DNA from: Infirmifilum sp.
Lineage (GTDB): Archaea; Thermoproteota; Thermoprotei; Thermofilales; Thermofilaceae
Direction of reading: 5' to 3'
DNA length: 21,347 nt
Assembly (NCBI GenBank): GCA_041287245.1
Contig: JBEULP010000026.1
Coordinates: 1-21,347, forward strand
The notes under the pieces: generated by a model
What the model was told of the DNA's origin: nothing
The model's database searches: none
What the model saw: the letters and a program-made list of their open reading frames with translations, nothing else
Shown here: positions 3,312-5,080 of the stretch, in pieces
Numbering within the stretch: the first letter of the stretch is position 1
Layout of the letters: each line of letters starts with the position of its first letter
Position numbers and translations under genes: made by a program

Positions 3312-3914
3312 CTACCTATAGAAAAGCCCCCACTCGAGGAGAGCTGAGTGTATCATCTCCGCGCTTATAGAGGCTATGATCACCGCCATAAACCTTCCCA
3401 TGCTCCTAACCACGTTCTTGCCGGCAACCTCTAGGAGCAGGTCCCCGAAACGCAGTGTTAGGTACACGAGGAGAGCTGCGGCGACCGTCGCTGGCAGAGT
3501 TTTAAGCAGCCCGTGGGTCGCCGTCAAAACGACAAGCGTAGTCATCGTCCCCGGACCCACGAGCAGAGGCGTGGCGATGGGCACTATAAGCGATTCCTCC
3601 GTGTTCTCGAGCATCTTCGTCCTGCTTATGCCAGACAGCATGTCGATAGCAATAACCATTAACAGCACACCACCTCCGAACCTTAGCGACGCTATACTCA
3701 CATTCAAGAAGCTCAGGAGGACGCCCCCCGACACGGCGAAGACAACCATCAAAGTCAGCACGTAGACACTGGCTTTCTTGACCGCCTCAGCCTTCTCAGC
3801 CTGGCCAAGTCCTCCCACGAGGCTGGCAAAAGTGGGTAAGACGCTGACAGGGTTCAGCACAGCGTAGAGCTGCGCAGTCATCAACACGACGTCTAGAAGC
3901 CAACCCCCATCCAT
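3312..3914 (-). CDS. marC: MarC family integral membrane protein
   Basis: LYAVLNP, GGVLL..IAIDML, IVPIATPLLVGPGTMT and RFMAVII motifs. Confidence 0.92.
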   Translation of the reverse strand: MDGGWLLDVVLMTAQLYAVLNPVSVLPTFASLVGGLGQAEKAEAVKKASVYVLTLMVVFAVSGGVLLSFLNVSIASLRFGGGVLLMVIAIDMLSGISRTKMLENTEESLIVPIATPLLVGPGTMTTLVVLTATHGLLKTLPATVAAALLVYLTLRFGDLLLEVAGKNVVRSMGRFMAVIIASISAEMIHSALLEWGLFYR

Positions 3915-3935: not shown

Positions 3936-3943
3936 AATATAAG
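3936..3943. promoter_or_regulatory. TATA box, possibly bidirectional (marC on -, structured RNA on +)
   Basis: AATATAAG/CTTATATT lies ~25-28 bp from the marC ATG (3914) and ~25-30 bp from the start of the structured element (~3963-3968). Confidence 0.55.
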
Positions 3944-3962
3944 GCTTACCCGCCTACACATC

Positions 3963-4137
3963 GTTTACAGGGGGCCCTCTATACCCCCTTGGAGACGGAG
4001 GGGGACTCGCCCGGTGAAGGGGATTGTCTAAAGGCGGAGCCCATAGCCCACCACTGGACGGGCAGTGCGGTTTAGCAAAACCCACAGCTATGACGAGTTG
4101 AAGTGAAGACGGCGCGCCCGGAGCCCCTGAAACTCAA
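3963..4137 (+). ncRNA. Structured intergenic RNA candidate; probable IS200/IS605 tnpB 3'-end (omegaRNA-like) remnant without tnpB
   Basis: Closing helix GTTT(A)CAGGGG 3963-3973 / CCCCTGAAAC 4124-4133; internal hairpins CCCCCTT..GAGGGGG, CACTG..CAGTG, GGTTT..AAACC, CAGCT..AGTTG; K-turn-like ATGACGA/GTGAAGA/CTGA. Conceptual translation (LKAEPIAHHWTGSA, ..SYDEL.., VKTARPEPLK) resembles crenarchaeal TnpB C-terminal tails as I recall them. Confidence 0.5.
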
Positions 4138-4151
4138 GGAGCTCTGTCCTG

Positions 4152-4166
4152 ACAAACGCTTAAATA
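4152..4166 (+). promoter_or_regulatory. BRE + TATA box for the 4202 gene
   Basis: ACAAACGC-TTAAATA, ending 36 bp upstream of ATG 4202. Confidence 0.5.
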
Positions 4167-4201
4167 TCGCGTATTCGTATAGATTACGCAAGGGTTTTTG
4201 T

Positions 4202-4825
4202 ATGTCCGGTATAGCGAGTAGAGCCTCTCTAGAAGAGGAGATATACCTGAGATCCCTGACCGGCTACCTGGTGGGCCAACACCTACTCGAAGGATACAGC
4301 AAGGTTGCGGTGATCACATACCCGGACAGAATATGCTCCGCAATGGCCGCAGCGCTAGTCACCTCATACATCTCCAGGTCTGGGTACAGGGAGAGCCCCG
4401 CGGCCGTGCTGACCTACGAGGAGGGTAAGGAGAGGGATCTGGCTAGAAAGGTTCTTGAGCTAAAACCCGACGCCGTGTACATATCCTTCGGAGGAGAGCA
4501 GAAGCTCAGCTACGTAGGCGAGATCACCAGAAAGGTGGTCACTTCACTGTCCCAAGAGGGCTACAGGGGCTCGCTCCTCCTTCACGTTAGAGTGTGGCTC
4601 GCCACTAAACAGCTCTCGCTACTGCTCTCGGATCCCAGCCTCGCAGCCTATCTCGCATCCCTAAAGGAGATCAGGGTGTTCACGGCAGACGTTCCGAACA
4701 GGAAGTTCCTATTCCACAAGGTTGTCATCGAAGGCTCGAGCGCCAAACTAGAAAAGCTCAAAGAGGCGCCCATAACCCAAGAACACGCTAAACTCCTCTC
4801 TATATCTCTACCCCCACCCGAGTAG
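4202..4825 (+). CDS. Hypothetical protein (207 aa), alpha/beta pattern
   Basis: Long ORF with typical codon usage and alternating strand/helix pattern (KVAVITYPDRIC; PDAVYISFGGEQ). Start moved from GTG 4103 to ATG 4202 because the upstream stretch overlaps the structured element and a TATA box. Confidence 0.75.
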   Translation: MSGIASRASLEEEIYLRSLTGYLVGQHLLEGYSKVAVITYPDRICSAMAAALVTSYISRSGYRESPAAVLTYEEGKERDLARKVLELKPDAVYISFGGEQKLSYVGEITRKVVTSLSQEGYRGSLLLHVRVWLATKQLSLLLSDPSLAAYLASLKEIRVFTADVPNRKFLFHKVVIEGSSAKLEKLKEAPITQEHAKLLSISLPPPE

Positions 4826-5080
4826 AACCCCCCGAAAAGAGCTTTTTCCTAGCTTACTTTCACTGGCCACCCAGGGTTTCACTAAGCGCCAGCTGCGCCC
4901 AGTTTCTTCATATACGCCCAAACAAATGCCAAAACTGTATGAAGGAACAATAAAGCTACTCCCAAATGGATTAAGGTTAAATTCGGATAACAAGAAGAAT
5001 ATTGTGGAGGCAGCAAGGAAGTCCCATGGCTTTGGACGCGAAAATTTTTATTAAGCATTCTTCTTAACTTTGAAATTGAA

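Follow-up and report, generated by a model that had tools for sequence, protein, structure and literature searches.

An intergenic stretch of Infirmifilum sp. is very probably a decayed, end-less remnant of an omegaRNA-encoding IS200/IS605 tnpB element

The omegaRNA of ISDra2 consists of the 3′ end of tnpB together with the right end of the element, and its terminal bases form a pseudoknot, as described for that element in PMC10097598. Gene-less members of the IS200/IS605 family, known as PATEs, often encode omegaRNAs that depend on a TnpB supplied in trans, according to the accounts of them in two reports (PMC10055086; 10.1101/2023.11.20.567912), and the expression of archaeal omegaRNAs is reported in three others (PMC11043419, PMC12558985, PMC12817955). 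A literature search, supplements aside, found no paper on the omegaRNA of the particular tnpB family considered here. The window that we analyzed is a 21,347-nt stretch of DNA from Infirmifilum sp., contig C46 of a 119-contig, 1.81-Mb assembly that is 99.99% complete by markers. An earlier note on it had proposed that positions 3963 to 4160 encode an orphan omegaRNA-like RNA with its own TATA box, which would have lost its coding capacity while keeping its base pairing, and which might be a guide scaffold for a TnpB or TldR whose gene lies at another site, or an L7Ae-bound small RNA.

Our analyses make it very probable that this stretch is a decayed, end-less remnant of an omegaRNA-encoding IS200/IS605 tnpB element, most likely a non-functional one (Table 1). 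The basis of this conclusion is the homology to the family; the loss of coding capacity, of the right end and of half of the core pairs; the absence of a cognate tnpB and of a Y1 tnpA from the assembly; and the presence of several sister remnants in the same genome. The remnant lies within the 287-bp gap that separates the divergent marC and 4202 genes. The window sequence was also matched in hot-spring metagenomes, in three DNA runs of a single study that is possibly the assembly's own source; no RNA run was listed among the matches.

Table 1. Features of the remnant and its surroundings (positions are those of the window).
Feature	Positions	Strand	Basis or remark
marC-family membrane protein gene	3312-3914	-	PF01914, E 9e-36; left neighbour, divergent
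TATA box, most likely of a leaderless marC promoter	3936-3943	-	genome-trained promoter models
Closing helix, 5′ arm	3963-3973	+	no counterpart in family alignment; borderline chance
Likely 5′ extension, corresponding to the first C-rich stem strand of the family	3977-3986	+	CM alignment; model includes the window
Core remnant of omegaRNA-encoding tnpB 3′ end (IS1341-type)	3987-4113	+	nhmmer; ~60% identical to intact members
Expected place of the rest of the tail, right-end hairpin and GGTCAG	4114-4160	+	homology undetectable; -1.4 bits
TATA box of 4202 gene	4159-4167	+	best-scoring site of region, both models
Conserved protein gene, right neighbour, divergent	4202-4825	+	no Pfam or NCBIfam family

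The resemblance to tnpB tails of archaea that the earlier note had pointed out was borne out independently. A profile of 20 archaeal IS200/IS605-family tnpB 3′ ends, built with the window left out, matched 3987-4113 with 42.8 bits (E 2e-11 in the genome) over model positions 61-201 of 264, which supports the proposed derivation from an omegaRNA-encoding tnpB 3′ end. In the likely 5′ extension, one of the two stacked first-stem helices has been lost. Coding capacity is gone, as had been proposed: stops at 4073-4075 and 4104-4106 and two frameshifts disrupt the tail, the frame from 4019 reading GDCLKAEPIAHHWTGSAV up to the first stop and a shifted frame at 4077-4103 reading KTHSYDELK before the next. 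The tail of intact relatives reads GNGLKTQPVVYRWT...PTSNEAMRMKAVNHKPMN, and full genes end GNGLKTQPVVYRWT...MKAVNHKPMN. BLASTN of 3960-4140 found five places in 4 of 400 other genomes, namely three gene-less mini-elements with a tnpB tail and two chance 19-mers in a coding gene. With one mini-element as query, matches were obtained in 51 of 120 genomes of the class, full tnpB genes among them, and the proteins of these parent genes belong to the RNA-guided TnpB family NF040570 (155 bits, cut-off 100). Searches of phage and plasmid sets by BLASTN returned chance pieces of 21-38 nt only. Pattern scans gave no match in the genome contigs, none and then four in metagenomes, and 15 in viral contigs; at E 0.01 the family profile recognized none of these 19 metagenomic and viral loci, and a viral locus (L145) that came up at E 0.049 when the window served as query was taken as chance.

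The family structure was derived from 25 of 27 extracted rows (35 near-full-length matches were available), leaving out one row with a trimming error (L097) and one that was too decayed (L105). It comprises four helices, and these covary: two-sided changes were counted in 8 of 27 pairs and in 19 cells, compared with 3.3 pairs and 4.6 cells in shuffles, in a count that includes the window row (about 3 of the 19 cells) and a shuffle test that relatedness inflates. In slid controls, the paired fraction dropped from 94.5% to 37-53%. The omegaRNA region of the family (alignment A3, with L064, L065, L070, L073 and others) contains a long-range helix of 12 bp that covaries, along with one or two motifs that, judged by eye, resemble K-turns and flank variable hairpins. 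Of the 18 pairs in P2 and P3, the helices whose alignment is robust, the window keeps 9 (P2 3/6, P3 6/12), the same score as that of a visibly broken sister copy on contig C43, compared with 17-18 in all seven rows with a long tnpB frame and 14-18 in all 25 family rows. When the window's 33 substitutions were placed at random on the family majority sequence, 10.3±1.8 pairs were left, and the ancestral fold therefore bears no sign of having been kept. The claim that pairing persists in the window is not supported. Conservation in the window was lower in paired columns (0.58) than in unpaired ones (0.70). Two of the changed P3 pairs are compensated (U-A to C-G), which speaks slightly against pure drift.

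Both ends of the element are missing from the window copy. In the family, the right end is a hairpin followed by GGTCAG, with a sharp boundary beyond which the flanks are unrelated, and the left end has a hairpin of the same kind, located about 15-20 nt after TGAC (in 6 of 10 rows among the matches listed). The left-end hairpin motif was not found upstream in the window, and the alignment places no GGTCAG terminus in the window copy. When 4112-4200 was compared with the last 65 positions of the family, its score (Table 1) was equalled or exceeded by 246 of 402 scored shuffles (500 made). The region where these parts would be expected contains the closing helix's 3′ arm (4124-4133), the TCAA at 4134-4137 that had been proposed as the right end, and the proposed guide at 4138-4157. 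In the alignment, this TCAA falls about 45 nt inside the element, the family terminus of hairpin and GGTCAG lying that much further on and being absent here. With the right end missing, the TCAA at 4134 does not mark it, and 4138-4157 does not qualify as a guide. By analogy with ISDra2, the GGAC loop of the family would likely pair with the terminal GTC, both sets of columns being invariant; the window retains the loop at 4056-4059, and the GTC partner is gone. Two short matches noticed post hoc, TGAC-AAACG at 4150-4158 (resembling a TAM plus the start of a left end) and GTCC at 4146-4149 (as a possible GGAC partner), were set aside.

Elsewhere in the genome, the family is represented by a complete gene-less PATE of 340 bp (C86:44240-44579; L077/L114), which runs from TGAC through the left hairpin, the omegaRNA region and the right hairpin to GGTCAG, and by progressively broken copies on contigs C43, C44, C54, C86 (at 64.3 kb) and C49, with weaker ones on C6 and C83. 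The complete PATE is a better candidate for a trans-acting omegaRNA than the remnant at 3987-4113, though it keeps 8 of 12 core-helix pairs and no TGAC-flanked target was found for it. An end-less remnant in another genome (L166 in G273) stops at nearly the same point as the window copy. Three loci of that genome, which is of another family (L058, L062, L166), have in common with window 4040-4056 a 17-nt core-strand variant, with at most one mismatch, and a scan of 401 genomes for the 17-nt pattern found six places outside the window, three of them G273 remnants and three unrelated. The common variant may reflect either a shared sublineage or a recurrent mutation path. A second mini-element family, which lies after TTAC, shares the terminal hairpin: its copy at C9:1557-1832 has the same tail as the intact TnpB encoded on C86 (L001), a possible cognate nuclease within the genome, and its copy at C25:17185-17226 consists of ends only.

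Target duplications and TIRs are not expected of IS200/IS605 PATEs. The alternative that the stretch is one of many dispersed MITE copies is correct insofar as dispersed, gene-less sister remnants exist, but these belong to an IS200/IS605 PATE rather than to a TIR-type MITE. A classical MITE was rejected: the stretch is single-copy in the genome by BLASTN, and the arms of its closing helix are not common to the sister copies. We propose that the element inserted after a TGAC motif and that most of tnpB was lost by internal deletion, as in the complete PATE on C86; both ends would then have been lost, possibly during a rearrangement that joined marC and the 4202 gene. A remnant deprived of the right-end hairpin could not be excised by TnpA, and one deprived of the terminal GGTCAG would have neither a pseudoknot partner nor a guide boundary, both of which TnpB would need. 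Since the promoters on either side face outward, the remnant probably has no transcript of its own and would be subject to drift.

The alternative that survives best, although we consider it unlikely, is that the remnant has been exapted as a refolded, stand-alone small RNA, in which new helices and the closing stem replace the core helix. Such an RNA might be bound by L7Ae through inherited K-turn-like motifs and be transcribed from a bidirectional TATA box shared with marC. The motifs of the earlier note are all in place (AATATAAG at 3936-3943, ATGACGA at 4090-4096, GTGAAGA at 4103-4109, CTGA at 4127-4130, as well as the TCAA), and the stretch is GC-rich as claimed (61% G+C, compared with 54% for the window). 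The claim of a structured RNA fares less evenly. Its closing helix exists, 3963-3973 forming 10 Watson-Crick pairs with 4124-4133 around a single bulged base (A3967), but comparable helices (10 bp or more, a single bulge, 100 nt or more between the arms) arise in 11 of 200 dinucleotide shuffles (~5.5%), and the fold is not clearly above chance, with z of -0.51 for 3950-4165, about 0 for 3974-4135 and -1.58 for the best-chosen segment, 3964-4132. Intact family members range from +0.2 to -4.7, some of them being weak too. The predicted fold of the window uses 3984-3990/3998-4004, 4060-4073/4107-4119 and the closing stem, none of which has a homologous helix. In favour of refolding, 4060-4073/4107-4119 is predicted at high probability, and both this helix and the closing helix use positions at which the window departs from the family; the best segment's z is a further point against the decay reading. 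Against refolding, one X3 contig has G4061A, the family majority base, with which pair 4061-4118 of the window-specific helix would be disrupted, although this variant is weak evidence (depth 7, same study).

L7Ae reportedly binds RNAs of Sulfolobus transposons, a finding credited to Zago in 2005. An imperfect K-turn-like motif inherited from the family survives at 3984-3994/4015-4022 (by eye, alignment A3), but the predicted fold, in pairing 3984-3990 with 3998-4004, does not form the K-turn arrangement. The box motifs are not those of a canonical box C/D sRNA, a candidate that we rejected after the C-guide-D′-C′-guide-D pattern gave no match on either strand; the rRNA stretches and 19 tRNAs tested yielded no complement of 10 nt (the 23S having been located only roughly). 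Rfam, which the earlier note had recommended consulting, gave no match to the window copy up to E 1. Intergenic ncRNAs resembling IS1341 tnpB ends are described as expressed in Halobacterium and Pyrococcus (PMC4615843), which lends the small-RNA reading some plausibility. Orthologues of the window copy were sought in 60 relatives by BLASTN and in 40 genomes of the order with a CM that includes the window, and none was found; the relatives are distant (flanking proteins 43-79% identical), and this absence therefore limits old conservation only, a recent lineage-specific exaptation being invisible to it.

The promoter evidence also weighs against a refolded small RNA. In this genome, YTTWWAW words peak 30 nt before the ATG, the modal distance, and on the minus strand the box at 3936-3943 begins exactly 30 nt before the marC ATG (3914). 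On that strand it scored 9.8 bits (45th percentile) in a seeded model, which is biased to TT, and 7.4 bits (median 7.3) in an unseeded model free of that bias; on the plus strand it scored -2.5 and 1.7 bits, below the 5th percentile. The box that had been assigned to the RNA as its own thus fits marC, on the opposite strand, better. ATATAA-type words are somewhat enriched upstream of genes in the genome, which would leave room for a weak plus-strand promoter at 3936-3943. The box of the 4202 gene occupies the expected place of the right-end hairpin, and the promoters of both neighbours face away from the remnant.

It is very unlikely that the stretch encodes a functional omegaRNA which uses 4138-4157 as its guide and serves, in trans, a TnpB or TldR encoded at another locus. 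The omegaRNA-region ancestry is genuine, the loop word GGAC, a likely pseudoknot partner by the ISDra2 analogy, is kept, the genome has two intact TnpBs, and PATE-encoded omegaRNAs working in trans are proposed in PMC10055086. Against these points, the right end is missing, the central 12-bp helix is half broken, and the two intact TnpBs of the assembly, like a third, broken one, have tails unlike that of the remnant's family, with whose TnpB the genome's TnpBs align over 52-261 residues only, at 23-40% identity. Searching for a cognate tnpB by tblastn with six cognate-family proteins yielded tail remnants and short cross-matches in the zinc-finger region only; such a gene could perhaps be unassembled, the assembly being in 119 contigs. 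The intact TnpBs keep the D-E-D residues (by eye) and are therefore not TldR-like. A Y1 transposase had no match in the assembly. PF01385 likewise had none in the genome despite the two TnpBs present, and this family is therefore insensitive here. The proposed guide fared no better: its best other genomic matches (two sites) had four mismatches and none followed TGAC, and in viral contigs seven exact 16-mers were found, none of which extends or follows TGAC.

A cis role for the remnant, as a spacer or insulator that takes up most of the gap between the two outward promoters, is also very unlikely, given that marC and the 4202 gene are unlinked in relatives and that the sequence bears no sign of selection. 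In a check of synteny, which the earlier note had suggested, the two genes were adjacent at none of the eight orthologue loci of the 4202 gene (±1.5 kb read). Eight of 22 other genomes of the family encode a counterpart of the 207-aa product of 4202-4825, with identities of 30-55% and in varying neighbourhoods; a longer frame from the GTG at 4103 was rejected, orthologue matches starting at about 4202. None of the marC loci checked in four genomes of the genus and nine others carries the element, and an empty site with marC beside the 4202 gene, by which the insertion might be dated, was not found among the orthologue loci examined. In one orthologue of marC, an interruption of about 2.4 kb includes a TnpB-like frame (L054/L056, G007:C1:185455-188152), and another orthologue is divided into two frames (L045/L055, G006:C1:36849-37425). 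Just after the 4202 gene, at 4870-4952, the contigs of runs X1 and X3 differ at four sites, and one run contig departs from the reference at 4952, a variable junction beyond that gene.

As such, the remnant matters little, being one of several tnpB remnants in the genome and of a kind already described. Its analysis yielded by-products of modest use for a widespread TnpB family of hot-spring archaea whose omegaRNA region had no Rfam match here (window copy scanned): a core fold supported by covariation, TGAC as a candidate TAM, and GGTCAG as the right end. Should a refolded RNA prove to be expressed, it would illustrate a route from guide scaffold to host sRNA, as a recent instance in which an omegaRNA scaffold was domesticated in the absence of the nuclease.

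Compared with described systems, the Pyrobaculum box C/D sRNA/MITE-like elements, as presented in PMC6009581, likewise have C-like and D-like words in DNA derived from a mobile element; in the window, the C-like words descend from the tnpB tail, the boxes are spaced non-canonically and no target was found. Closer are the sotRNA-like ncRNAs of Pyrococcus abyssi (sRK48, sRK52, HgcC-like), described in PMC4615843 as intergenic and similar to IS1341 tnpB 3′ ends; those RNAs are expressed and keep the right-end hairpin, whereas the window copy lacks the hairpin and is known from its sequence alone. With the omegaRNA/reRNA of IS1341-type archaeal TnpBs (L064, L065, L070, L073; NF040570), it has about 60% scaffold-core identity and conserved loop words in common, but there is no upstream tnpB, right-end stem or guide boundary, and the core helix is half broken. 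PATEs of Geobacillus stearothermophilus (PMC10055086) and VNG_R0052 of Halobacterium (PMC4615843) are, as described there, likewise protein-free tnpB derivatives with omegaRNA-region sequence. Its sister copies, both in this genome and in related ones, have the textbook form of a PATE, with TGAC, left hairpin, tail, right hairpin and GGTCAG; the window copy, in contrast, has neither terminal palindrome and is, rather than a mobile PATE, a fragment of a PATE or of a tnpB gene.
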